Shown piece after piece: positions 1-20,626 of a stretch of DNA of 64,000 nucleotides. The stretch comes from Erysipelotrichales bacterium (GTDB taxonomy: Bacteria; Bacillota_I; Bacilli_A; RFN20; CAG-826). The DNA lies in contig JAFLVA010000003.1 of the NCBI GenBank assembly GCA_022508525.1, forward strand, positions 39,769 to 103,768, in the 5' to 3' direction. The notes under the pieces were generated by a model. That model had not been told where the DNA came from. It did not search any database and was given only the letters and a program-made list of their open reading frames with translations. A program made the position numbers and the translations under genes. How positions within the stretch are numbered: the first letter of the stretch is position 1; each line of letters starts with the position of its first letter.

Positions 1-466
1 TAATTATGGCGCCATCTTCCTTTTCACATATATATAATGCAATTTCTTTTTTTCCTACAATTAAGTAAAACAAATATTTTGAGCTTGTTTTGCATTTAAC
101 TGAATTATTCTTAAATGTGTTATAATCAGTACTCGAAGGAAAAACATAATCAGAAGGATGAAAATGCCAATCGCCTAGGTACATTGTAGTATTATCACAT
201 TTCCAAATAGAGTTGACAATTTCTATGTGATTTGGATCTAATCTACTATAACTAGTTGATGTAACACGATCAAAATATTGCTGATTTGTAATTCCTGAGA
301 TAATATATTCGTTTTTTTCTTTGATTTTAAATCCATACAAAATGCCTCCACTTTCTAAATGAGAATTTGTTACTTTAAAAAGACTTTTAATTACATCAGT
401 TTTTATAACTATTGATAGTCTTTTATATGTTATTACTACGTTTTCCACATATATCGCATCCTTCAT
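1..466 (-). CDS. cap3: CBASS Cap3-like JAB/JAMM metallopeptidase; C-terminus runs off the window, not in ORF track
   Basis: Hand translation of minus strand from ATG at 466-464: MKDAIYVENVV..HLESGGILYGF..LGDWHFHPSDYVFPSSTDYNTF.. carries the full JAMM motif E..HxHx7Sx2D. Start overlaps the cap2 stop by 44 nt. In-frame stop upstream at 491-493. Confidence 0.8.
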   Translation of the reverse strand, partial: MKDAIYVENVVITYKRLSIVIKTDVIKSLFKVTNSHLESGGILYGFKIKEKNEYIISGITNQQYFDRVTSTSYSRLDPNHIEIVNSIWKCDNTTMYLGDWHFHPSDYVFPSSTDYNTFKNNSVKCKTSSKYLFYLIVGKKEIALYICEKEDGAII

Positions 467-2093
467 AAACAAAATCTTTAGATATAGAATCTAATTCCTC
501 CTGAGTGTAGTTTGCATACTTTGTCAGCTTGTATCCATCCTGCAGATACTTTTTAAAGTTACCTTTTCTTATGAAATGCTTATTTCCCAAGGGGGAATAA
601 CTGCTATAATCATTTAATAATAAGTCTACAATTGAAGTGGCCAATCTAACTGTGGATACTTTCCCATAGGGAGTATAACTGCCTGCACATACATTATTTC
701 TAATTTTATAATCTACATCATCGGTAGTAAAATGAATATTGTTTGTTGATTTGCATAGGCAATTGTAACATCCAGGTTTTGATGTATCTATTGTTAGAAT
801 ATGTTCTGCGATTCCGTAAGGTTCAAGCCAACCAAAAATAAGCTTCGTATTAATATTATTGTCATAAATGTATTTATTTATATATTTGTGTAGAATATTA
901 TTTCCTACACAAACTATAATATATTTATATTTTTTTAGATTTAATTTAGTGCATTTTAAAAGTTCTACAATGTTTTCTTTATAAATTGTTATATTTACAT
1001 CAGGATATTTAAATTCTGTGAAACATTTTAAAACTTCAGCTTTATTGCTTTCTTCTAAATGATTTAAGTATATAAAACCTGTTAAATTTCTGTATGTGTT
1101 TTCATATTTCAAAAGATCGTAGTCGACTATGGATAAATTTAAAAATCCAGAGCTTGAAAGCAGTTCAACCACTTCGCTCCCAACAGATCCACATCCAATG
1201 ACTAATACATCTTCATCGGCCTGTATGCTTCCACCTCTAGTTCTCAAAAATTCAAAAGAAATATCACGAACATTATATATTTTTATGCATGTGTCAAAAG
1301 TAGAAATATTATTTTTATATACAATACTTTTATTTTGTTCTAACTCTGTAAGAAAGTAATTTTTAATTCCGTTATCAAGTTTATATTCACATAAAAAAAA
1401 TTGCGCTTTATTCATTTCTTTTTCCATTTTTTTCTGTGATGACTTGGTAAGACAATTATATAATTCATTGATCATCAAATTGCTGGTAGTAATCTTAGGT
1501 AAAGAGTGTAACTCTAAATGAATATAATTTCTGAATGGATAATTTTTATTTGAGTTTTTTTTATAACATTTGTATAGTGTAGAATCAATCCCGATTAATA
1601 TTCTATTTTCCTCAATAACTAATTGGCCTTTGTCGCCATTAATTGATGAACATAATAGACATTTTTTTTCGCAATAATTCAAATAAAAAGGTAGATAGTC
1701 ATTAAATTCGTATTTGATTTCTTTTGAGTTTTCTTCTTCTGAAACTAATAAAAGGTTTCTCAGAGAATTAATAGTTTTTATAATTACTTCTTCCTCATTC
1801 TCTATGTCATAGTCAATATCTTCTTGATTTTGAAGACAAACAACACCTTTTTTGTCAATGTGCGAATGAATTAAATCTGTAAGAACCGTTAGTTTTGGTA
1901 AGTGAATTGGAAAATATTTTGGAAGGAACAATTCAAATTTTTCCCCTAAGAAATCAAATGTACAAATAAATTGCGAGTCATGATTATTATATAATTTGCT
2001 TTTATCGGCTATTACAATATTCTCTATACCGATTATTTTTTCTAATATATTTTTATAATCAGGCATATTTTGCACTTTTTGAGAAAGACTCAT
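423..2093 (-). CDS. cap2: CBASS Cap2-like E2/E1 fusion (ubiquitin-transferase-like)
   Basis: 556 aa. N-terminal E2-like HIDKKGVVCL. ThiF/E1 Rossmann DVLVIGCGSVGSEVVELLSSSGF..IVDYD. Cys cluster PGCYNCLC. RBS GAGGA 5 nt upstream of ATG 2093. Sits between CD-NTase and JAB genes. Confidence 0.8.
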   Translation of the reverse strand: MSLSQKVQNMPDYKNILEKIIGIENIVIADKSKLYNNHDSQFICTFDFLGEKFELFLPKYFPIHLPKLTVLTDLIHSHIDKKGVVCLQNQEDIDYDIENEEEVIIKTINSLRNLLLVSEEENSKEIKYEFNDYLPFYLNYCEKKCLLCSSINGDKGQLVIEENRILIGIDSTLYKCYKKNSNKNYPFRNYIHLELHSLPKITTSNLMINELYNCLTKSSQKKMEKEMNKAQFFLCEYKLDNGIKNYFLTELEQNKSIVYKNNISTFDTCIKIYNVRDISFEFLRTRGGSIQADEDVLVIGCGSVGSEVVELLSSSGFLNLSIVDYDLLKYENTYRNLTGFIYLNHLEESNKAEVLKCFTEFKYPDVNITIYKENIVELLKCTKLNLKKYKYIIVCVGNNILHKYINKYIYDNNINTKLIFGWLEPYGIAEHILTIDTSKPGCYNCLCKSTNNIHFTTDDVDYKIRNNVCAGSYTPYGKVSTVRLATSIVDLLLNDYSSYSPLGNKHFIRKGNFKKYLQDGYKLTKYANYTQEELDSISKDFVYEGCDICGKRSNNI

Positions 2094-3003
2094 TGCTTTC
2101 CTCTTTTTCTGGCTCTGGGAAGTCTGGAAATATTTTTCTCAGTATACAGCAACATTCATATAAACTGGATTTTTTAATATTTTTAGCTTCAATTAATGTA
2201 TTATGTAATTTTTTCACTTCTTCTAAAAATATTGATACGCATTTTTCATCAGCGTCCATTTTATAATAGATATTATCCGAAGAAAACGGATGACATTTGG
2301 ATATGTGACCATTAATAACTAAGTTTTTTAGCCTGTTTGCAATTTCGATAAGTGTGTCTAAATCATTGTCAAAAAAGAAAGAATCAAACCATTCTTTTGC
2401 TTCTAACGTTAAGGCAATACTTGGGGTTTTTGAATTTTTTCTTTTATTTGCAAATGCGTTGTTATTCCATTTTTTAAGAAGTCTAATTATTCTCTTATAA
2501 TCAGTGTTTTTTGATTGCAAATACTCTATTAAATCATTTGGTTTAGATTCGACCCATTTGACATCATCTTGCTTTCCATCTGCCAAATAATATTTTTTTG
2601 TTTGATCATCATAGGCAAAAATTGGAAAATCAATATGATAATTAGGATTACCATCTTTTATATATATGGCTGTTAGACATTTTGTTTTAAATTTTTTCTC
2701 CTTATGATTAGATATAGCATCATAAACAGATTTTTTGCATTCATTTGCATCGTATTTTTCTAAATCTGATTCTAGAATATTAAGTCTTATACCACAATCA
2801 ATGTCATAGTCATTATCTTTATATTTTACGCCTGTCTTTAATTTATAACTTCCCAAATTAATATAACTAAATGTTAAGTTATCCAAATTATTTTTAATCT
2901 CATCTAAAGTGATATCCCTTTTTTCTCTCATTTTGTCATAATCACTATCATGTAGCATTATTGAATCATTATAGTCTTTAAATAAATCATTTAAATCTTT
3001 CAT
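2059..3003 (-). CDS. CD-NTase (cGAS/DncV-like nucleotidyltransferase)
   Basis: 314 aa. GS..DxD active-site pattern GSYKLKTGVKYKDNDYDIDCGI, third acidic site HIDFPIF, IIRLLKKWNN helix typical of CD-NTases. ATGA overlap with upstream SAVED gene. Ends in TGA. Confidence 0.8.
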   Translation of the reverse strand: MKDLNDLFKDYNDSIMLHDSDYDKMREKRDITLDEIKNNLDNLTFSYINLGSYKLKTGVKYKDNDYDIDCGIRLNILESDLEKYDANECKKSVYDAISNHKEKKFKTKCLTAIYIKDGNPNYHIDFPIFAYDDQTKKYYLADGKQDDVKWVESKPNDLIEYLQSKNTDYKRIIRLLKKWNNNAFANKRKNSKTPSIALTLEAKEWFDSFFFDNDLDTLIEIANRLKNLVINGHISKCHPFSSDNIYYKMDADEKCVSIFLEEVKKLHNTLIEAKNIKKSSLYECCCILRKIFPDFPEPEKEESNESFSKSAKYA

Positions 3004-3773
3004 TTTTGTATTCTTCCTTCCTTAATGTTAATTTTCCATGTGTAGTTTCCGTTTTCATATTCGTAACAGTACACATTTGGGTGATGCTTTTGTATTGAAC
3101 TACCAATCGTAAAAGCAATAGATTGCCTTGCTGCAACGTATAAATGTATGTTTTTTACATTTTTGTAATCTAAGTAATCAAATAGTTTTAAACATTCTTC
3201 ATAAACAAAATCCAAATATTCTTTGGAAATTACCTCGTTTTTCATCCTTACATTAAGAAATATTGAATTTCTTTTAGGTAATTTATCAGTGCTTATATCA
3301 TATGAACTATTTATAACGACATTGATGTCTTCTAATGAATTTTCGATTTCATAATTGATGTCATAATCGATGTGTTTTTTGCTGCTTTTTACTATATATT
3401 TTTTATTAGTATTTTTGTTGTTTTCCAAAAAAACAATGTTTGCTTTGTTGCTTGCCATATACCCATCATAAATCGCTAATGGCACGCTAACGCATCCAGT
3501 ATAATAAAGTGTTTTAGAATATTTTTTACTTTTATTAAATCTTTTCCAAATATACTTCATTTTTTTTAAATGGAGCTTATAATACTTATCGTTTAACGTA
3601 TATAGTTGTATTACATTGCTATTTTGCAGTCCAATTTCTTTTTCAAATGTGCGCATATCTTCACCTAAAAATTTTTTATTACAATTAACATAAATAATGT
3701 TTTTATCATATTGTTTTTTGATTTTTTTGTAAATTTCTATTAGTTGCCAAACAAATTTAAATAGTTCTATCAT
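3000..3773 (-). CDS. SAVED-domain protein (cyclic-oligonucleotide sensor) with no recognisable fused effector; ORF track extends to 3848
   Basis: Two CARF-like halves: YYTGCVSVPLAIYDGYM and IHLYVAARQSIAFTIGSSIQKHHPNVYCYEY. Preferred start is ATG 3773 with AAAGGGGGGG SD-like run upstream. The 25-codon extension to 3848 has no SD and coincides with promoter/CIRCE-like sequence. Confidence 0.6.
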   Translation of the reverse strand: MIELFKFVWQLIEIYKKIKKQYDKNIIYVNCNKKFLGEDMRTFEKEIGLQNSNVIQLYTLNDKYYKLHLKKMKYIWKRFNKSKKYSKTLYYTGCVSVPLAIYDGYMASNKANIVFLENNKNTNKKYIVKSSKKHIDYDINYEIENSLEDINVVINSSYDISTDKLPKRNSIFLNVRMKNEVISKEYLDFVYEECLKLFDYLDYKNVKNIHLYVAARQSIAFTIGSSIQKHHPNVYCYEYENGNYTWKINIKEGRIQK

Positions 3774-3800
3774 GCGATATGTCCCCCCCTTTGTTACTAT

Positions 3801-3830
3801 ATTATATAAACAAATTAGCACTGTTGTCAA
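3801..3830 (-). promoter_or_regulatory. Putative sigma-70-type promoter of the CBASS operon
   Basis: Minus-strand read TTGACA (3830-3825), then 16-18 nt, then TATATA/TATAAT (3808-3801), followed by a G-rich SD and ATG 3773. Confidence 0.5.
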
Positions 3831-3841
3831 CAAAGTGCTAA
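3815..3841. promoter_or_regulatory. CIRCE-like inverted repeat (HrcA-operator-like) overlapping the CBASS -35 box
   Basis: Plus strand reads TTAGCACTG-TTGTCAACA-AAGTGCTAA versus consensus TTAGCACTC-N9-GAGTGCTAA (16/18). Arms are self-complementary at 8/9. Layout matches the distal clpB CIRCE at 20429-20455. Confidence 0.6.
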
Positions 3842-3913
3842 AAAACATTTGCTGAAAGTTGTCAAATTGTTAATTTTGCGGCAAAAACGGAATAATTATC
3901 TCAGTTTTATACA

Positions 3914-3969: not shown

Positions 3970-6900
3970 ATGAAGACTTTATTAAATAATTACTGCTTTT
4001 CTGAAAAAAAAGGTGGGTTATTATTGATAGATATGCCTACTGGTATAGGAAAAACACATGATGCTATTGAGTTCATATATGAAAACTATAAGAAAGCAAA
4101 AAATAAGATTATTTTCATTACTAATTTAAAGAAAAATTTACCTATAGCAGATTTACAAGAATATTTTAAAAAAGATAATAGGTTAGATGAGTTTGAAAAC
4201 GATGTCTTGTTTTTAGATAATAATGTTGATACTCTCATTGATCACTTCGATGAAGTTAAAACTTTAATACCAAGAGATAAATTTAATAAAAATGGTATTT
4301 TAAACAACGTGGAGACTTGCATTAATATTATACACACGCTCAAACCCGCTTTGAATAAAAGAAAAGATATGGCAAGAGATATTGTTTCAAAAGATAATAC
4401 TATTTTTATTATAAACCAAGCCAAAGAAAACCTTAGAGATAAATATGAAAAGGAGTTTAGATTAGTAATTGAAGAAGTATTAAAAATTGATGCTGATGGA
4501 AAGAAAAGAACAAAAGCGCAAAAATTACAACTCATCAAAGATGATTCTGATTATCAATGGATTTCAAAACTTTATCCAGCTGTATTCACTGATGAAAAGA
4601 AAATACTTTTTATGAGTATTGATAAATTTCTTGTTAGAAATTCAACAATTATTGAGCCTTCATATAATTTCCTTGATAATAAATCATTATTAAACGATTC
4701 CATTATTTTTATTGATGAGTTTGATTCAAGCAAAGAAATTTTTTTAAATAATATAATAGATGATTGTTTAAACACTGAAATAGGAATAATTGAATTATTC
4801 CGTATAATTTATTCTGGGTTGGAAACTACTAATTTTTCAAGATTATTAACAGAAGTATCTAAAAAACTATTTGACAATATAAATAATAAAAAATTACGTT
4901 ACTATACGCCAGAGAAGATACTGAATGAGTTTAGTGCGCGAGCAAAAGAAATTGAAGAAAAATATAATCTTGTTGATTTTCATAAACTTGAGGTTTCAGA
5001 AAAAGAAAAGGCAAACTTTTTGTTTCAGGATTATCAATTTCATACAGTTCTAAATGATGAGAAAAAATTTGTTTATTTTGAAAACGACCATAAACAGCAT
5101 ATAAACTGGATAAAAAGTTCCAACAGTAAAAAAACAACTGAGGAGGAAAGTCTTTTTTCATTGCTTAATGAAATTAAATCTTTTTTAGTGTATTTCCAAA
5201 ATGGAGTTAAGTTAATTGCGGATAACTATTTATCATTAAAGAATGATAGAAATCAAGAAACAAATAATTTTTCTTATGAAGCCGCTGTAAAAACAGTTTT
5301 ATCAGAGTTTGGTATTGATGGGAAATATTTAAATTACTTAACCAGTCAAATTCTTAACACAAAGAAAACAAAATCGGTTAAACTAGTTGATTTAAAAAGT
5401 GAACTAGATTGCTCAGTTTATGAAAAAGGATTTAGATTTTATAATTTAATAGATAATGATAGTTTTGATACTCAATCAAAAATTAATTTAATATCTTTTA
5501 ATATATCGCCAGAAAAACTATTAATTTATTTATGCTCAAACTCTAAAGTAGTGGGTATATCCGCAAGTGGCACTTTAAATACAGTTACTGGCAACTATGA
5601 TCTTCCTTATGTTAAAAGTAAATTAGGACATTTATACTACGAATTAAGTCGGGATGAACAAGATAGAATTAACAATTTTGTTATGAAAAATTTAGGTGAT
5701 TATAGTAATGTGAAAATTGATATTGATAAATGTATTATTAATGATAAAAATTATTATGATGTTATACAAAATTTTTTGACTGAAGATGAGTTTAAGTTAA
5801 TCAAAAAGAAAATTGATAAAATTACTACAGAAGACTATATGAAATCAAGATATTGCAAAGTTACGTATGCAATTCATAACTTTTTTGTAAGAAATATAAA
5901 TTCATTTTTATTTTTAACAAATGTGTCGATGAATAATAGTATGAATTTTAATTACGAAGTAGTTAAATTTATATTTAAAACATTAAAAACAAAGTATTGT
6001 AAAAATGCATATTTATATTCTTTAGATGGTCCGTTAGATAAATTTGAAAATTTAAAAGAAAATATTTTTAGTAAATTGAAAGAAGGAAATGATGTGTTTG
6101 TAGTTTCGTCCTATCAATCAATTGGAGCCGGTCAAAACTTACAATACGAATATAATGAAATGTATGAAGATTTATTGGAAACAATAAAAGATAGTTCATA
6201 TGGAAAAAAATATAAAGACTTTGATGCTTTATTTTTGGATAAGCCAACTAATTTGTTTGTAAATATGAATTCTAGCCCAACAGAAGAGCAATTACTAAAA
6301 TTTATATATCAAATTAAGTGTCTAGAGGAAGTTGGTTTTTTTACTCTTGAACAAGCGAATATTGAGATAAAAAAAGGAATTAAAAGATTATATCATACTT
6401 CTACTCAAAGAATTAGAACTCCAAGGTCAAAACATTTATATATGCATACTGCTAAAATTATTTTACAAGCAATTGGAAGAATATGTAGAACTAATAAAAA
6501 GAATAAAAACATTTATATTTCCTTTGATCAACAAATGGAAACCGAGCTAGCAATTTGTAAAGAAGATCTTCTCAACATACAAATTAATTATGAACTAAGA
6601 AAATTGCTAAGTGAGTGTAAAAATATAAAAATTATTGATGATCAAAGCATACATAATGTAAACAATTCGAAAATTAGAAAAATTAATGATAGATTAGAGA
6701 CTCTAAAACAGTTTAAATTTGAAAGTGATATTGAAAAATGGGAGGAATTGAGAGATGTTGTTTTAAAACATCCGTACGATAATGATGAAATACATTTTAA
6801 ATATGATATATATGTTGAGTTAAAGGAAGCTAGTAATCATTATTATTACAATTTAAATGAATACAATGAAATAAACGTTACATATAGTATGCCTAATGAT

Positions 6901-7431
6901 TTTTGCATATGTGAAAATTCCTCCAATTTAAAAACGCTTATGTCCATAAATGGTGTTAAAGATTATTTTGAACTAAAAGGTTATGCAACCTCATTTCAAA
7001 AATCAAGATATATTCTTTTTCCGAATGTTTTTAATAGAATATATCTTGGTGCATTAGGCGAGGTTGTTGGTGAGTTTTTAGTGAACAAAATATTGGAACC
7101 TTTCAATTTTAAACTTGAACGCATTAGGGAACTAGAAAGATATGAAAAATTCGATTTTGTTTTTGATAATGATAAATATATTGATTTTAAATATTGGAGC
7201 GGAATGAATGATAAAGAAAGAACCGCTGAAGTAAATAGAGCATTAAAAAAATTAGATAAATGCCAGGGTAAAATATGCTACATAATTAACATACTCAAAC
7301 CAGAAAATTATGATCCTAAACTTTACATAAGTGCAGATTCAAGATTAATTATAATTCCTTATTTATATAATCCCGAAACTTGCAAATTTAATAATAATGC
7401 TATAGAGTTGCTTTTAAAAAACAGCTTTTAA
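3970..7431 (+). CDS. SF2 helicase (DinG/XPD-like motif pattern) fused to a C-terminal PD-(D/E)xK-like nuclease domain
   Basis: 1153 aa. Motif I DMPTGIGKTH, motif II IIFIDEFDSS, motif III GISASGTL, motif V-like SSYQSIGAGQNL, motif VI LQAIGRICRT. C-terminus GALGEVVGEFL..EKFDFVF..YIDFKYW fits a D..(D/E)xK nuclease core. Confidence 0.65.
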   Translation: MKTLLNNYCFSEKKGGLLLIDMPTGIGKTHDAIEFIYENYKKAKNKIIFITNLKKNLPIADLQEYFKKDNRLDEFENDVLFLDNNVDTLIDHFDEVKTLIPRDKFNKNGILNNVETCINIIHTLKPALNKRKDMARDIVSKDNTIFIINQAKENLRDKYEKEFRLVIEEVLKIDADGKKRTKAQKLQLIKDDSDYQWISKLYPAVFTDEKKILFMSIDKFLVRNSTIIEPSYNFLDNKSLLNDSIIFIDEFDSSKEIFLNNIIDDCLNTEIGIIELFRIIYSGLETTNFSRLLTEVSKKLFDNINNKKLRYYTPEKILNEFSARAKEIEEKYNLVDFHKLEVSEKEKANFLFQDYQFHTVLNDEKKFVYFENDHKQHINWIKSSNSKKTTEEESLFSLLNEIKSFLVYFQNGVKLIADNYLSLKNDRNQETNNFSYEAAVKTVLSEFGIDGKYLNYLTSQILNTKKTKSVKLVDLKSELDCSVYEKGFRFYNLIDNDSFDTQSKINLISFNISPEKLLIYLCSNSKVVGISASGTLNTVTGNYDLPYVKSKLGHLYYELSRDEQDRINNFVMKNLGDYSNVKIDIDKCIINDKNYYDVIQNFLTEDEFKLIKKKIDKITTEDYMKSRYCKVTYAIHNFFVRNINSFLFLTNVSMNNSMNFNYEVVKFIFKTLKTKYCKNAYLYSLDGPLDKFENLKENIFSKLKEGNDVFVVSSYQSIGAGQNLQYEYNEMYEDLLETIKDSSYGKKYKDFDALFLDKPTNLFVNMNSSPTEEQLLKFIYQIKCLEEVGFFTLEQANIEIKKGIKRLYHTSTQRIRTPRSKHLYMHTAKIILQAIGRICRTNKKNKNIYISFDQQMETELAICKEDLLNIQINYELRKLLSECKNIKIIDDQSIHNVNNSKIRKINDRLETLKQFKFESDIEKWEELRDVVLKHPYDNDEIHFKYDIYVELKEASNHYYYNLNEYNEINVTYSMPNDFCICENSSNLKTLMSINGVKDYFELKGYATSFQKSRYILFPNVFNRIYLGALGEVVGEFLVNKILEPFNFKLERIRELERYEKFDFVFDNDKYIDFKYWSGMNDKERTAEVNRALKKLDKCQGKICYIINILKPENYDPKLYISADSRLIIIPYLYNPETCKFNNNAIELLLKNSF

Positions 7432-7444
7432 AGGTTTTATATAA

Positions 7445-7468
7445 ACTTACATGTGTAAGTACTTTTTT
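7445..7468 (+). terminator. Rho-independent terminator after the helicase-nuclease gene
   Basis: ACTTAC-ATGT-GTAAGT hairpin followed by a T6 run. Confidence 0.45.
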
Positions 7469-7651
7469 GTTAGATATGATATTAGAGTTACTCATTTACA
7501 TTAGAATTATGTTTTTAAGTTTTACATATTATTTGAATTCATCATATTTACAAATTAATATTTTGTTACCGTCTCATTGAATATGATCGCCAAATTGACA
7601 ATCTCCACAAGTGAATTTATGTTATTACAATTGTTTATTTGAGTAATGTTT

Positions 7652-7977
7652 TTATAGCTTGTTATATTTTGTGGATACACCTTTAGCTTTATCAACGGGA
7701 TACTTTTTTTCTGTTTTATCCATTTTTTCATTTATGATTTCTAAAATGTCTACATTTACGACTAGAGACATTTGAATGCAATAATTCATTACATCTGCCA
7801 ATTCTTCTTTAACTTCTTCAATATCATATTCATTATCGTTCCATTGAAAACATTTTAATAATTCATTCGCTTCAATAGAAATAGATTTTGCTAAATTAGA
7901 TGGAGTATGGAATTTATCCCAATCTCTGTCTTTATTAAATTTATCGATTCGTTTTTTAATAATTTTAATTTGTCCAT
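7652..7977 (-). pseudogene. MazG-like all-alpha NTP pyrophosphohydrolase (DCTPP1-like), frameshifted in a 5' A6 tract
   Basis: GAGGA RBS + ATG 7977, giving MDKLKLLK. The frame breaks at A6 (plus-strand T6 7952-7957). The shifted frame reads KKRIDKFNKDRDWDKFHTPSNLAKSISIEANELLKCFQW..EELADVMNYCIQMS..KYPVDKAKG..* with no further lesions. Not in ORF track. Confidence 0.7.
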
Positions 7978-7988
7978 ACTTATATCCT

Positions 7989-9330
7989 CTAATTTAATTT
8001 TAACATTTTTTTAATATAATTTGACAATGCTTTATCTTCACAATAAATAAAACATCCTTTTTGCCCTCTTGTTAATAATGTTTTATATGTGTTTTTAATT
8101 AGTTGTTTAGCTAATACTTCTCCACAAGATCTAATACCTGATGATTTATCATCTTTTGAAATTTGATTTTTATCAGTTATTATTTCGTTTTTAACCTCGT
8201 CATATCTCAAATCTTTTCCGATAAGGACACCAATATAATTAAATTCTAGTCCTTGAGCAGTATGAATACATCCAACTTCTTCAAAAGACGATGGATTAAT
8301 AACCCATATTTTATCATTTTCTAAATTCCATCTTGCTTTAAATCCATTTTCTAAATAAATATCGTATTCTCCACGATGGTTTTTAACATCCCAATCATAA
8401 CAATACCCTGCAACCATACGTGCTTTATTATCAATTTCATTTTTATTTCTTAATTCATCTCTTAAAGCATTTGGATCATCAAAGACTCTAATATCGAAAT
8501 TTAAGTCAGAAACATCAATATCAACAGGTTCTCCTATTTGAAGAATGTTATTTATTAATTGAATATATAGATCACTACCATTACATCTAAATTGTTAAGT
8601 TAAAATTGTTTCTTCGTTCATTGTGACTCTACTATTTAATTGCTTTGCCCAATGAGCTATTTCTTCAATTGATCCAATATCTTTTGTAGTTACTTTTTGA
8701 TTTTCATCAATTAAAAATATTGTTAACAAAGAGGCATTGATGCATTCCATAATTTGATTTTGACCTTGGAAGTCACCATACATTTGTTTGACTAATCTAT
8801 GTGATTCATCCACAATTAAGCAATCATAAAAATTACTTGGAGACTTACATAATCCAAATGGTGATCTAAACAATTGCTTTATATTAACTTTTTTTTAAAT
8901 CGGGTTTACTTAATAATCTTAAATATGCATCTCTAGAGGCGCTATTTTTAGTGACATAACTAGTATTTAATACATTAGCAATGTATCGTTTTAAAAGATT
9001 TACAGCCAAAACAGATTTTCATGTACCTGGTCCGCCTTGAATAATAATAGTTTTTTCATAGTCTTAACACACATGTCATAAACTACAGCTTGTTCATCTA
9101 AAAGCATGAATTATTTTCTGCCTTTAATTAATAAAATGGTACGAGACAATCTTGTAATGACTTAGAAGGCTTAGTTCTACCATTATCAATTTTATATAAT
9201 AAATCACCATCATTTGATTTTTGATACAAAATGGTACCATATCATATCACTCTTTATAAATAGCATCATTTAATTTTCAGCAAATAACTATAACGTCGTA
9301 TTTATATTTATTGTATTTGATTATACGCGC
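7989..9330 (-). pseudogene. DUF2075-type P-loop NTPase (Schlafen-helicase-like), decayed; N-terminal limit approximate
   Basis: Reconstructed ..TIIIQGGPGT*KSVLAV.. has TGA at 9019-9021 in Walker A. Frameshift at the T8 run 8889-8896. CLIVDESHRL. In-frame TAA at 8595-8597. Then QFRCNGSD..MVAGYCYDW..IHTAQGLEFNYIGV..YKTLLTRGQKG. Another frameshift at the T6 run 9051-9056 and more stops upstream. Confidence 0.75.
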
Positions 9331-9506: not shown

Positions 9507-10037
9507 TCACTCATCTTTATCTAAATCAATCATTCTTTTAATTATGAATCTAACTTTATCACTTTCAAATATTAAGCCAAGAATTTGTTTTAAAGCACTA
9601 ATTGATTCAACATATTCAATTGTAAATTTCTCTCCCAATATCCCATCTTCAATTTCGATTCTTAGTGGAAAAACAGATTGATAATTAAGTGTAAACAATC
9701 TAAATTTGTATTTTCTACTATAAATCTCAAATTTATATTTGTTTTTTTCGAATAATGAATCTGCATTTTCTAAATTTTGTGTTTCATCTTTTTCGATTTT
9801 TTCAACATTCGGCGCGCATAATGTTGAAGAAATCTCACTTGCTGCAATAAGTGCTTTTTTCAAAACTTCAGAATTTAGATTTTTATATTGATAATGTACA
9901 AGGCTAAGCGAAGCCGTAACTTTTCCATCTGTTTTTTCTTTGAGTAAGTTTGCCTGACCTCTAATAAGAGATAAAGCTGTACTTGCAATATTCTTATTAC
10001 AATTTACATTTCCCCATAAATCTAGTTTGTCATCCAT
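9507..10037 (-). CDS. Hypothetical 176-aa protein, translationally coupled to the upstream EEP gene
   Basis: AAGGAGAG RBS 6-7 nt before ATG 10037. 12-nt gap after the EEP stop. No motif recognised. Ends in TGA. Confidence 0.55.
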   Translation of the reverse strand: MDDKLDLWGNVNCNKNIASTALSLIRGQANLLKEKTDGKVTASLSLVHYQYKNLNSEVLKKALIAASEISSTLCAPNVEKIEKDETQNLENADSLFEKNKYKFEIYSRKYKFRLFTLNYQSVFPLRIEIEDGILGEKFTIEYVESISALKQILGLIFESDKVRFIIKRMIDLDKDE

Positions 10038-10049
10038 AAATTTCTCTCC

Positions 10050-10853
10050 TTATATATTAATATTTACTAATAATGGAAGATGATCACTAATTTTTTTATT
10101 AGGTTTTTTCTTCTTTATTAAATCTTGTTGCTTTATTTTTTTTAAGTATTTGAAAGTGTGTATTTGATTGGCCAAGTTTTTTCTAACTAATATTTGATCA
10201 AAACAATACCAATAAAGACAGTAATTGCCAGAACTATAATAAAACGAGCCATAGTTTTCGTTGGTTTCGTTAATATATTCTATAATCGGATTATAAAATC
10301 GTCTATATTTACATTCTAAGTAAGTAACAACTTCTTGCGAATTTATAATGTTTTTGAAAAGGACCGAATTAAAAGAGTCCTTTTCAATCATTTCTGCATC
10401 AAAGGGACTTGCATTCATATCGCCAATTACTATACTACTCTCAATATTGTCTTTCTCAGCATCTGAAATATCATTTATTATATTTCTTATAATATGTTTT
10501 CGATCACTACTATTAGAACCACATGTGTTTGATGGTAAATGTACACCTACTATTATATATTTTTTGTTTTCTAGATTTAATTTGGCTAATAAATATCTAT
10601 GTTGCTCTCTGATTAATGTGAGTGAAATTGTATTCCTATATAAGATTTTAACTTTCTTGCAACCACCAAAACTTTCTAATAAACAAAAACTATCTGAAAG
10701 TTTTCTTTTTAAAATATCAAAATTAATATTTTCATACTCCGAAAATATAGCGATGTCTATACTATTTTCTTGAATACAATCTGCAATAATTAATTCTAGA
10801 TTATTATTAGATTTTAAATTCCAATACAACAAATTCATTAGTTTCATTCCCAC
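10050..10853 (-). CDS. Endonuclease/exonuclease/phosphatase (EEP) family protein
   Basis: LLYWNL N-terminal strand, GVHLPS, VIGDMNASPFD and C-terminal SDHLPLLV motifs. Start ambiguous: GTG 10853, ATG 10847 or ATG 10838. Confidence 0.7.
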   Translation of the reverse strand: MGMKLMNLLYWNLKSNNNLELIIADCIQENSIDIAIFSEYENINFDILKRKLSDSFCLLESFGGCKKVKILYRNTISLTLIREQHRYLLAKLNLENKKYIIVGVHLPSNTCGSNSSDRKHIIRNIINDISDAEKDNIESSIVIGDMNASPFDAEMIEKDSFNSVLFKNIINSQEVVTYLECKYRRFYNPIIEYINETNENYGSFYYSSGNYCLYWYCFDQILVRKNLANQIHTFKYLKKIKQQDLIKKKKPNKKISDHLPLLVNINI

Positions 10854-17813: not shown

Positions 17814-20369
17814 TTATTTGATAACAAATATGAATTTATCATCAAAATCTATATAAATATTTGAATTTTTCTTGATTTTTCCAGCAATTATTTCTTTAGA
17901 TAATGGAGTTTCAATTTCTTTTTGAATGAATCTTTTAATTGGTCTTGCTCCATAGATTTGATCAAAACCTTGCTCCACAATTGCATCCATTGCTTTATCG
18001 CTTAAAGAAATCGTGATTTGCATTTTAGAAAGACGATGTTCTAGTTCTTTAATAAATTTGTTGACAATGTTTTTAATGATATCCTTATTAAGAGGATTGA
18101 AGAATATTATATCGTCAATTCTATTTAAGAATTCAGGTTTAAAATGCGATTTTAATTCATTTTCCACTAATTGATAATTTTCTTTAGATGCACTTTCTAG
18201 TAAGTATTCAGAGCCAATGTTAGAAGTCATAATAAGAATTGTGTTTTTGAAGTCTACAACTCTTCCAAGTGAGTCTGTTAGTCTTCCATCATCAAGTACT
18301 TGTAATAATACATTAAAGACATCAGGATGTGCTTTTTCAATTTCATCAAGTAAAACGATAGAATATGGTTTTCTTCTAACTGATTCAGTTAATTGACCGC
18401 CTTCTTCATAACCTACATAACCTGGTGGAGCGCCAAGTAAACGAGAAACTGAAAATTTTTCCATATATTCGGACATGTCTATACGCACTATTTGATCTTC
18501 ACTATCAAACATATTTTCTGCCAAAGCTTTAGCTACTTCTGTCTTGCCAACGCCAGTTGGACCTAAGAAAAGGAAGCTTCCGATTGGGCGATGTTCATCA
18601 GATATACCTGCTCTAGATCTTAATATGGCATTACTAACTTTTTCTAATGCTTCATCTTGACCTATAACTCTTTTGGAAAGATTTTCCTCAAGTTTTAATA
18701 ACTTCTCTGATTCTGAGGAATTTAATCGCGATACTGGTATACCAGTCCATTTAGCCACTACTTCAGCAATATCAGTTTCATCTACAATTTCATCAAGCAT
18801 TCTTCCATTTTTATCTTTAGTTTTATCTTCAGTTATTAATTTTTCTAAATCTGGAATGGTTTGATATTGGAGCTTGGCTGCCTTTTCAAAATCAGCATCA
18901 TTTAATGCTTTATTTAATTCGATTTTTGCTAAATCCAAATCTTTTTTAGCATTCTTAGCTCGATATAATTCATCTTTTTCTTTTTGCCATTTAGCAGTTA
19001 ATTCAGTCTGTTTTTGTGTTAAATTAGCAATTTCTTCATCCATTTCTTTCACTCTTTTAAGAGAAACATCACTTGTTTCTTTAGAAAGAGAGATACGCTC
19101 AATTTGAAGTTGCATTAATTTTCGAGATATTTCATCTAATTCAACAGGCATTGAATCAATTTGCATTCTTGTAGCAGCACATGCCTCATCAATTAAATCA
19201 ATTGCTTTATCTGGTAAGAAACGATCAGAAATATAGCGTTTAGATAATGTTGCAGCGGATATTATCGCAGAGTCTAATATTTGTACACCATGATGTGATT
19301 CAAATCTTTCTTTTAATCCTCTGATGATTGAAATCGTATCTTCCACAGTTGGCTCGTCAACCATGACTTTTTGCATTCTTCTTTCAAACGCTGAATCTTT
19401 TTCAATATATTTACGATATTCATCAAGGGTTGTTGCTCCGATACAATGGAGTTCTCCTCTTGCAAGCATTGGTTTAAGCAAATTTGCCGCATCCATAGCG
19501 CCTTGAGTTTTACCAGCACCAACAAGCAAATGAATTTCGTCAACAAATAGTATGATTTGTCCATTTGATTTAATTATTGCGTTTAAAACAGCCTTTAATC
19601 TTTCTTCAAATTCTCCTTGGTATTTAGCACCAGCAATAAGCGCACCCATATCTAATTCGAAAATAGATTTATCTTTTAAAGAGAATGGAACATCACCTTT
19701 AAAAATTCTCCATGCCAAACCTTCTACAATTGCAGTTTTACCAACACCTGGCTCACCAATTAAAACAGGATTGTTTTTACTTTTTCTTGATAATATTTGC
19801 ATTACACGACGTATTTCTTCATCGCGACCAATAATAGGATCAATTTTTCCTGAACGTACATCACTAATTAAATCTCGACCGTATTTTTTTAATACTTCAT
19901 ATGTCTCCTCTGGGTTTGTACTTTTCACAGTATTTCCGCCTCTAATATCTTTAATGGCATTAAGCACATTTTGCTTTGTGAAATAATTTAACTTCTTTAA
20001 TTTAGTAGTGATTGAGTGCTTATTATCAAATATTGCTAAAATTAAGTGTTCAATAGATAAATATTCATCATCAAAATTTTTCTTATATTTTTCAGCATCA
20101 TTTAAAAGAGTAGCGACATTATTAGATAAATAAGGATTATTAGCATTAGATGTTGTAACACTATTAAGAACATAATCATTAATAATATTTAATACTTCGT
20201 TTTTATTTACTCCTATTTTTTCTAAAACGTTTAATAGCATTGAATCATTATCTTGATACATCGCTAGTAATATTTGAGGCATATCAATCTCGTTATTTTT
20301 ATGATTTTTTGCAATTTCACTTGCGTCGTTTATTATTTTAATAACTTTTTCTGTCATTTTATCGGTCAT
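17814..20369 (-). CDS. clpB: ATP-dependent chaperone ClpB
   Basis: 851 aa. Two AAA+ modules ([16 protein letters not shown]) separated by a coiled-coil middle domain. No ClpP-binding loop noticed. Confidence 0.92.
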
Positions 20370-20382
20370 ATGTAAACCTCCT

Positions 20383-20409
20383 TTAGCACTCTACAGCTTC
20401 AAGTGCTAA
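20383..20409. promoter_or_regulatory. CIRCE element (proximal, between -10 and SD of clpB)
   Basis: TTAGCACTC-TACAGCTTC-AAGTGCTAA, 17/18 to consensus. Confidence 0.8.
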
Positions 20410-20428
20410 TTATATTATATGGTAAATT

Positions 20429-20455
20429 TTAGCAATGTCAATACAAGAGTGCTAA
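20429..20455. promoter_or_regulatory. CIRCE element (distal, overlapping clpB -35)
   Basis: TTAGCAATG-TCAATACAA-GAGTGCTAA, 16/18. On the gene strand TTGACA-16-TATAAT is embedded in or follows it. Confidence 0.7.
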
Positions 20456-20540
20456 AAATTGCTTTTATACTAATATTATGTTTTATTTTGGAATAAATAG
20501 ACTTGTAAAGATAAAATTAAATTGTTAAAATATTTACACT

Positions 20541-20626
20541 GCCCGAGTGGTGAAATTGGTAGACGCAATGGACTCAAAATCCATCGGTTAAGAGCCATGC
20601 CGGTTCGAGTCCGGCCTCGGGCACCA
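20541..20626 (+). tRNA. tRNA-Leu (anticodon CAA)
   Basis: GCCCGAGTGGTGAAATTGGTAGACGCAATGGACTCAAAATCCAT plus long variable arm, ending ..GGTTCGAGTCCGGCCTCGGGCACCA. Confidence 0.9.

Follow-up and report, generated by a model that had tools for sequence, protein, structure and literature searches.

A short helix-SAVED protein as the probable effector of a type II CBASS operon in an Erysipelotrichales bacterium

A 64,000-nucleotide stretch of an Erysipelotrichales genome (assembly GCA_022508525.1, contig JAFLVA010000003.1, positions 39,769 to 103,768; hereafter the window) begins with an operon of a cyclic oligonucleotide-based antiphage signalling system (CBASS), the first gene of which encodes a 257-aa protein made of a single N-terminal helix and a SAVED domain. 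This protein is very probably the effector of the operon. It is best explained as a reduced variant of the transmembrane (TM)-SAVED, or Cap14-like, lineage, with its membrane module pared down to an N-terminal helix of ~20 residues. The operon itself, the fold of the protein, the genomic contexts of its homologues and the character of its N-terminal helix all bear on this reading, and are considered below together with the alternatives on which each of them has a bearing.

The locus has the canonical four-gene make-up of a type II CBASS operon and opens with the effector gene. An earlier note, made by a model from the letters of the window alone, had placed the SAVED gene at the head of a CBASS operon, and the genes for a cGAS/DncV-like nucleotidyltransferase (CD-NTase), Cap2 and Cap3 indeed follow it, in that order, as co-directional and overlapping genes within region 1..3848 of the minus strand. 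The gene for the helix-SAVED effector, identified from its open reading frame, translation and SAVED matches, lies at 3000..3773 (minus strand, stop codon included), and its stop codon is overlapped by the start of the CD-NTase gene as ATGA. The CD-NTase (314 aa; 2059..3003, minus strand) matches the PADLOC cyclase model at 2.6e-61 and the Pfam DncV-like NTFase model with 33.5 bits against a cut-off of 24.9, and both its GS and DxD motifs are readable in the sequence. Its closest solved relatives are the Deinococcus wulumuqiensis enzymes 8ysn and 8ysc (E = 4e-19 for 8ysn); since a CdnB structure from this species is listed in PMC12804361, the window enzyme is probably CdnB-like, CdnB being the CD-NTase clade that partners Cap14 (PMC10402079). 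Cap2, an E1/E2 fusion of 556 aa (423..2093, minus strand), was recognised through PADLOC E1-E2 (1.3e-68) and Pfam ThiF (2.9e-18, 66.3 bits), along with weak UQ_con/Prok-E2_B matches. Cap3, a JAB/JAMM isopeptidase, starts at ATG 466 and leaves the window at its 3' end (1..466, minus strand, 155 codons visible). It carries the JAMM motif HxH...S..D (GDWHFHPSDYVFPSSTD) and matches the NCBIfam Cap3 model at E = 1.1e-13, under the curated cut-off, and homologous operons have a 156–163-aa Prok-JAB gene at the same position.

Domain searches and structure prediction confirmed that the 257-aa protein is one N-terminal helix plus SAVED, with ~25 residues outside the SAVED domain. The latter spans codons 26–257 (3003..3698, minus strand) and comprises two CARF-like halves: Pfam PF18145 matched residues 81–250 (69.3 bits against a cut-off of 26.2, E = 4.7e-19), NCBIfam NF033611 matched residues 61–251 (70.7 bits against a cut-off of 33, E = 1.4e-19), and a profile search of the PDB returned 9wq2 at 8.8e-13 and 9om7 at 4.4e-12. 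Two AlphaFold2 models were built, from 8-sequence and 21-sequence alignments, with mean predicted local distance difference test scores of 75 and 83 and predicted template modelling scores of 0.78 and 0.84. Both place a helix at residues 2–23 or 2–20, a strand at 26–31, and two Rossmann-like halves that extend to residue 256. When these models were compared to the PDB with Foldseek, the top 50 matches were all SAVED structures, led by 9wq3 ("3TM-SAVED filament bound to 2'3'-cGAMP") and 9om7 ("BtCap14 SAVED domain") at E-values of 1e-13 to 1e-16 and TMq of 0.64–0.74, and followed at a lower level by Cap5, SAVED-CHAT, the viral ring nuclease 9r8s, CalpL, and Cap4. Foldseek against BFVD gave one significant match, which was SAVED-sized. 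A cryptic effector fold was thus rejected, as only SAVED proteins were recovered from the PDB and BFVD, and at E ≤ 1 no model other than SAVED-containing ones matched the protein in Pfam, NCBIfam, or PADLOC. These results bear out what the earlier note had read from the translation, namely that the two CARF-like halves represent a SAVED domain, that only ~25 N-terminal residues are left beyond it, and that the protein carries no nuclease, TIR, protease, or TM module, a multi-TM module being absent. The Foldseek search with an AlphaFold model that the note had suggested likewise confirmed SAVED and found no effector fold.

Whether this short form is the one expressed depends on the start codon. 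The interval 3000..3848 (minus strand) is a real open reading frame, and both peptides quoted in the earlier note fall within it (TGCVSVPLAIYDGYM, residues 92–106, and IHLYVAARQSIAFTIGSSIQKHHPNVYCYEY, residues 209–239, in the numbering of the 257-aa form). Translation from the upstream in-frame ATG (3846..3848, minus strand) would add MFFSTLLTTVLICLYNIV as a TM helix, as the note had suggested, and would make the protein an ordinary 1TM-SAVED effector. The frame is open to this codon, the added peptide is hydrophobic, and a 282-aa product would approach the size of the 303–326-aa relatives described below. We nonetheless rejected this long form, which we consider barely credible, on several grounds. 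A promoter scan identified a perfect sigma-70-type promoter (TTGACA-18-TATAAT, 12/12; 3801..3830, minus strand) internal to the extension, with a −35 box at 3830..3825 and a −10 box at 3806..3801, both downstream of ATG 3848. A strong Shine-Dalgarno sequence read directly from the DNA (AAAGGGGGGG; 3783..3792, minus strand) precedes ATG 3773 by 9 nt, and nothing similar is found ahead of 3848. At homologous loci, in-frame stops occur 5–9 codons upstream of the ATG, and therefore no extension is possible there. The homologues are all 253–282 aa long, and NCBI annotates the 257-aa form, the identical protein P0001 being annotated in an Erysipelotrichales metagenome-assembled genome (MAG). The G-rich ribosome-binding site and the promoter, with the same TTGACA/TATAAT arrangement, are also kept at the homologous loci L004, L009, and L010, and in L004 the same G-run precedes the ATG of the SAVED gene. 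The hydrophobic look of the 5' extension presumably arises because T-rich promoter DNA is being read as codons.

The protein belongs to a distinct family of short SAVED proteins, of which we found no description in the literature searched. A word-indexed search returned nine close clusters of 254–261 aa, and a second indexed search recovered further members of 253–282 aa. An exhaustive profile search of 1.84 billion representatives yielded 266 proteins at E ≤ 1e-3, of which 24 reached E ≤ 1e-30, these 24 being 257–278 aa long and matching end to end, save for some shorter and apparently truncated hits. Searching 185,579 species genomes with the 8-sequence alignment returned one locus only, in an Anaeroplasmataceae MAG. 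Beyond a score gap stand two groups of longer proteins, i.e., 303–326-aa proteins with one strongly hydrophobic helix at residues ~15–45 (Kyte-Doolittle hydropathy over 19 residues, KD19, of 1.9–3.7), and Cap14-type proteins of 340–375 aa with two or three strongly hydrophobic helices.

All contexts examined have a CD-NTase gene immediately downstream of the homologue, and the CD-NTase is its sole constant partner. Four-gene type II operons with differing flanks were found at L001–L003, L004–L005, L009 (the Anaeroplasmataceae MAG), and L010, while P0009, P0166, P0164, P0165, and P0168 are each encoded in a two-gene type I system in which the gene directly after the SAVED gene encodes a ~405-aa CD-NTase bearing an AGS_C domain. 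The neighbours of these five two-gene systems are bacteriophage exclusion (BREX), type I restriction-modification, Mrr, DpnII restriction-modification, and a LytTR two-component system, and no third conserved gene accompanies the SAVED gene in the nine contexts. That the short protein is the only partner of the cyclase in the two-gene systems implies that it carries the output function. The earlier note had described a sensor with no recognisable effector domain, for which a partner in trans such as the divergently encoded helicase-nuclease of the window might do the killing. This DdmD-like protein was rejected as a partner, since it is missing from the eight other independent contexts, five of which are bare two-gene systems. 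Given the effector slot and the conserved helix, the protein is better described as a reduced TM-SAVED effector than as a sensor without one.

The same contexts bear on the possibility that this near-standalone SAVED protein acts upon the signal instead, binding or degrading the nucleotide as a sponge or a ring nuclease, like AcrIII-2 or the SAVED domain of CalpL, in an operon without a killing module. Only one standalone SAVED protein with a characterised function was found, and it is indeed a ring nuclease (PMC12751052); its structure, 9r8s, is a significant Foldseek match (TMq 0.57–0.64). However, the SAVED domains of Cap14 and Cap5 match better, and the protein sits in the effector slot as the only partner of the CD-NTase in two-gene systems, where a cyclase and a degrader alone would do nothing. 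Such a role would also leave the conserved N-terminal helix unexplained, and the setting is one of cellular defence islands, not viral genomes. Hence we regard a regulator of this type as improbable.

With the SAVED fold and the effector slot established, the sole non-SAVED segment and candidate effector module is the N-terminal amphipathic helix MIELFKFVWQLIEIYKKIKKQYDKN (codons 1–25; 3699..3773, minus strand), delineated from the AlphaFold2 models, its hydrophobic moment, the family alignment, and profile-profile comparison. The amphipathic character attributed to this N-terminus in the earlier note is reflected in a hydrophobic moment of 0.54 and in a polar stripe readable from the sequence (E3, K6, Q10, E13, K17, K20, and K24). 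Statistics for the corresponding pre-SAVED segment were derived from 25 aligned family members, in which it measures 24–34 residues. Its sequence is poorly kept but its character is retained, i.e., consistently helical and hydrophobic, ranging from amphipathic to TM-like across the family. The mean hydrophobic moment is 0.49 and exceeds that of composition-matched shuffles in 24 of the 25 members (mean z of +1.5), and 15 of the 25 have their most hydrophobic 19-mer in this segment. KD19 is 2.18 in P0019, 2.05 in P0020, and 1.96 in P0030. The C-terminal flank of the segment is basic (2.3 K/R vs. 0.6 D/E in the last eight residues), which fits a cytoplasmic SAVED domain, and the segment is succeeded by a run of basic residues and by (F)WKNKxI(I/V)YINSNKK, a conserved motif. 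A classical TM helix was considered for the window protein and rejected, its helix falling below the Kyte-Doolittle threshold of 1.6.

Alignment with the longer relatives indicates where this helix may have come from. When the short and the ~320-aa families were aligned with MAFFT, the N-terminal helix was split ambiguously between two helices, and hhalign profile-profile alignment was used in its place. With the ~320-aa relatives, hhalign aligned the window protein from residue 11 to residue 257 (probability 99.9, E = 1e-32) and paired residue 11 with their residue ~42, in the helix that lies between their TM helix and SAVED. With Cap14-like proteins, it aligned SAVED only, from residue 62. 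Because the helix pairs with the post-TM helix of the former and the alignment with the latter is confined to SAVED, the short family looks like a TM-SAVED effector that has retained only the helix adjoining SAVED. Among the three sources of killing activity offered in the earlier note, this short helix is the one that survives, being kept in the family and collinear with the post-TM helix, while the manner in which it would kill is something we infer.

The mechanism we would propose follows what has been described for Cap14. According to PMC10402079 and PMC13434031 (the latter summarising Gao 2026 and Tak 2026), Cap14/TM-SAVED binds 2'3'-cGAMP made by CdnB, ligand-bound TM-SAVED forms SAVED filaments in which arrayed membrane segments with opposed polar and apolar faces disrupt the membrane, and a nuclease can take the place of the membrane module, so that SAVED acts by clustering whichever domain is attached to it. 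By analogy, we infer the identity of the ligand, filament formation, and the membrane action of the helix for the window protein. An infection would prompt the CdnB-like CD-NTase, which Cap2 would prime and Cap3 would trim, to make a cyclic nucleotide, which the SAVED domain would bind. Filaments would then arise by head-to-tail stacking of SAVED domains, for which Cap14/3TM-SAVED is the precedent, and each filament would align many amphipathic, C-terminally basic helices on or in the inner leaflet. This array could breach the membrane and thereby abort the infection. Rupture of the membrane by filament-clustered helices is the mechanism we favour, although only by somewhat better than even chances.

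Several points weigh against it. No helix in the family is less hydrophobic than that of the window protein (KD19 of 0.47, and 1.08 over 15 residues). The ~14 mostly apolar residues of this helix are broken by E3, K6, and E13, and neither its length nor its apolar character suffices for a classical transmembrane span. A simple TM threshold (Kyte-Doolittle 1.6) is reached by only 6 of the 25 family members. The nearest relatives, of ~320 aa, have a true TM helix, and the membrane anchor proper may thus have been lost. As summarised in PMC13434031, the mechanism of Cap14 uses a hairpin between TM segments, which is impossible in the window protein. Finally, we found no experiment on any member of the short family in the literature searched.

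Some of these features would suit an adaptor acting in trans, in which helix-SAVED filaments, themselves inert, would use the helix to draw in an unlinked host protein or switch it on, or to sequester an essential one. A weakly hydrophobic helix with a regular polar stripe would suit a protein-protein interface, and the protein has no enzymatic domain of its own. On the other hand, there is no conserved neighbour in the nine contexts, and the dispersal of two-gene and four-gene cassettes among different defence islands argues for a self-contained system. The helix is also frankly hydrophobic in many members, including P0019, P0020, and P0030. We accordingly consider an adaptor unlikely. We would give similarly low credence to a broader, joint reading based on the KD19 of 0.47 and the regular polar stripe, in which the helix-SAVED protein of this clade would be something other than a membrane protein. 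Its filaments, or the bundling of its short helices, would sequester or activate an unlinked target, or the helix would be a tethered antimicrobial peptide that becomes lytic once arrayed, with HrcA holding the operon off through the operator-like sequence described below and tying CBASS to proteotoxic stress.

The low hydrophobicity of the window helix could also be taken as a sign of decay. In this case the gene would be a non-functional remnant of a TM-SAVED gene that lost its 5' TM part, perhaps upon the arrival of the DdmD-like gene, and indeed the closest longer relatives have an extra TM helix, the window helix is the least hydrophobic in the family, and a broken helicase gene lies in the same island. 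Yet the same length and architecture are found in 24 family representatives, clustered at 50% identity, in unrelated contexts. Among the close homologues L004, L009, and L010, the ratio of nonsynonymous to synonymous substitution rates (dN/dS) is 0.17–0.28, and within the first 28 codons the proportion of nonsynonymous differences (pN) is 0.21 compared to 0.80 for synonymous ones (pS). The SAVED gene is therefore under purifying selection. Moreover, the promoter, the Shine-Dalgarno sequence, the ATGA coupling, and the four reading frames are all intact, and we consider a decaying remnant highly improbable.

Separately, we observed that the pS of 0.80 in the first 28 codons, obtained between L004 and L009/L010, is about threefold higher than elsewhere in the gene (0.24–0.27), in what is a small sample. 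This raised value at the 5' end hints at recombination or module exchange there.

The promoter region of the operon includes a further element that may inform its control. HrcA binds the CIRCE operator, the consensus of which is TTAGCACTC-N9-GAGTGCTAA. An inverted repeat with two mismatches to this consensus, TTAGCACTT-N9-CAGTGCTAA, lies at 3815..3841 (minus strand), overlaps the −35 box (3825..3830), and represents a putative HrcA operator. Three CIRCE-like sites (≤3 mismatches) were observed in the 64-kb window, compared to 0.02 expected by chance, and the other two (20383..20409 and 20429..20455) are located just upstream of a clpB-like gene (17814..20369, minus strand). At the same position, L009 and L010 have TTGGCACT-N11-AGTGCCAA, and L004 has a near-identical copy ending in AGTGCCAT; in these three loci, a symmetric change of A to G and T to C has left the palindrome intact. 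Judged from the sequence, the CIRCE-like repeat suggests that the CBASS operon is repressed by HrcA or a similar dimeric regulator, and it may reflect heat-shock or proteotoxic-stress control of CBASS. No functional link between HrcA and CBASS was found in the literature searched, and signature motifs of dnaK, groEL, and dnaJ were not found in the window, which has clpB only. In the P0008 clade (L001–L003), there is no palindrome, and the region upstream (7230..7887 of those loci) instead holds, on the same strand, a 156-aa gene of unknown function overlapping a 65-aa HTH_3 gene. This pair may be dedicated regulators that replace the CIRCE-like operator.

The remainder of the island includes other candidate defence genes. 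Divergent to the CBASS operon, the DdmD-like helicase-nuclease (1153 aa; 3970..7431, plus strand) matches PADLOC DdmD at 1.9e-37 over profile positions 312–1111 of 1190, has a weak N-terminal ResIII match, and is matched by no NCBIfam model. No DdmE/pAgo-like gene adjoins it, and no plus-strand open reading frame of at least 120 aa follows within ~6 kb. The gene looks like a solitary DdmD-like defence gene. Two minus-strand fragments at 7989..8417 (profile positions 218–354, E = 2.4e-35) and 8595..8873 (profile positions 78–149, E = 1.6e-16) both match a helicase of the Schlafen group 3 / DUF2075 type, and by their profile positions are consecutive parts of a disrupted, pseudogenised defence-type helicase. 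Further along, a 267-aa protein of the endonuclease/exonuclease/phosphatase family (10050..10853, minus strand; Pfam Exo_endo_phos_3, 9.5e-07) precedes a protein of 176 aa (9507..10037, minus strand) that matches nothing in Pfam, and this pair (9507..10853, minus strand) could be another two-gene defence candidate. A tRNA-like sequence, gcccgagtggtgaaattggtagacgc...ggttcgagtccggcctcgggcacca (20540..20625, plus strand), was recognised by eye between clpB and a GNAT acetyltransferase gene.

The interest of the short family lies in its relation to a widespread effector class. According to the review PMC13434031, TM-SAVED proteins are the most frequent class of CBASS effectors, with a filament-driven membrane-rupture mechanism that was solved only in 2026. 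A natural family with the membrane module cut to a ~20-residue helix would mark the minimum that SAVED filamentation needs in order to kill. Rather than a new kind of system, it would provide a small and tractable natural test of the shearing/clustering and filament-driven membrane-rupture model, and would offer engineers a lytic module that is very compact and gated by a nucleotide. The family also carries a warning for annotation, in that a "SAVED domain-containing protein" of 257 aa can be a complete effector. Should the joint non-membrane reading be true, the killing principle would be one not yet described for SAVED effectors, and if the CIRCE-like operator is real, it would represent a previously unreported tie of the heat-shock regulon to CBASS expression.

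Among known systems, Cap14/3TM-SAVED (for example BtCap14 of Bacillus thuringiensis; 9om7, 9wq2, and 9wq3) provides the best sequence and structure match to the C-terminal SAVED domain. Both proteins lack an enzymatic domain, both are encoded next to a CD-NTase gene (the nearest solved relatives of the window CD-NTase coming from a species with a solved CdnB), and in both the N-terminal part is polar on one face and apolar on the opposite one, a feature of Cap14 according to PMC10402079. They differ in that Cap14 has ~370 aa and a three-helix membrane module of ~110–130 residues, compared to 257 aa and one helix of ~20 residues here, where the Saf-2TM module of two to three membrane helices is missing. 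In addition, Cap14 has been described in type I operons, whereas the window operon is of type II, with Cap2 and Cap3. By profile-profile comparison, the nearest family is that of the 1TM SAVED proteins (PDLC00663; P0040, P0047, P0051, P0055, and P0061; 303–326 aa), in which the shared helix is preceded by a strongly hydrophobic TM helix of ~40 residues (KD19 1.9–3.7), an addition that the short family does not have. The PADLOC effector models 2TM (1e-16) and 1TM (PDLC00663, 4.7e-15) both match the window protein, the 1TM match beginning at profile position 104 of 317, and automated tools would label it a CBASS "2TM/1TM effector" via the SAVED part alone. Cap5 (HNH-SAVED) and Cap4 (nuclease-SAVED) share the SAVED fold (Foldseek E of 1e-9 to 1e-11) and the activation logic of ligand-driven oligomerisation, but include a nuclease domain of 110–190 residues for which the window protein has no counterpart. 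AcrIII-2 (9r8s; PMC12751052) is closest in size, with 235 aa compared to 257 aa, is almost SAVED-only, and is a significant fold match. It is however a viral protein, derived from the SAVED domain of CalpL, which degrades cyclic tetraadenylate (cA4) against type III CRISPR and has no CD-NTase partner, while the window protein occupies the CBASS effector slot in cellular defence islands and has a conserved hydrophobic N-terminal helix. Since both the Saf-2TM module and a true TM helix are missing, we file the protein in neither the Cap14 nor the 1TM group, and consider that it probably works in a similar way.

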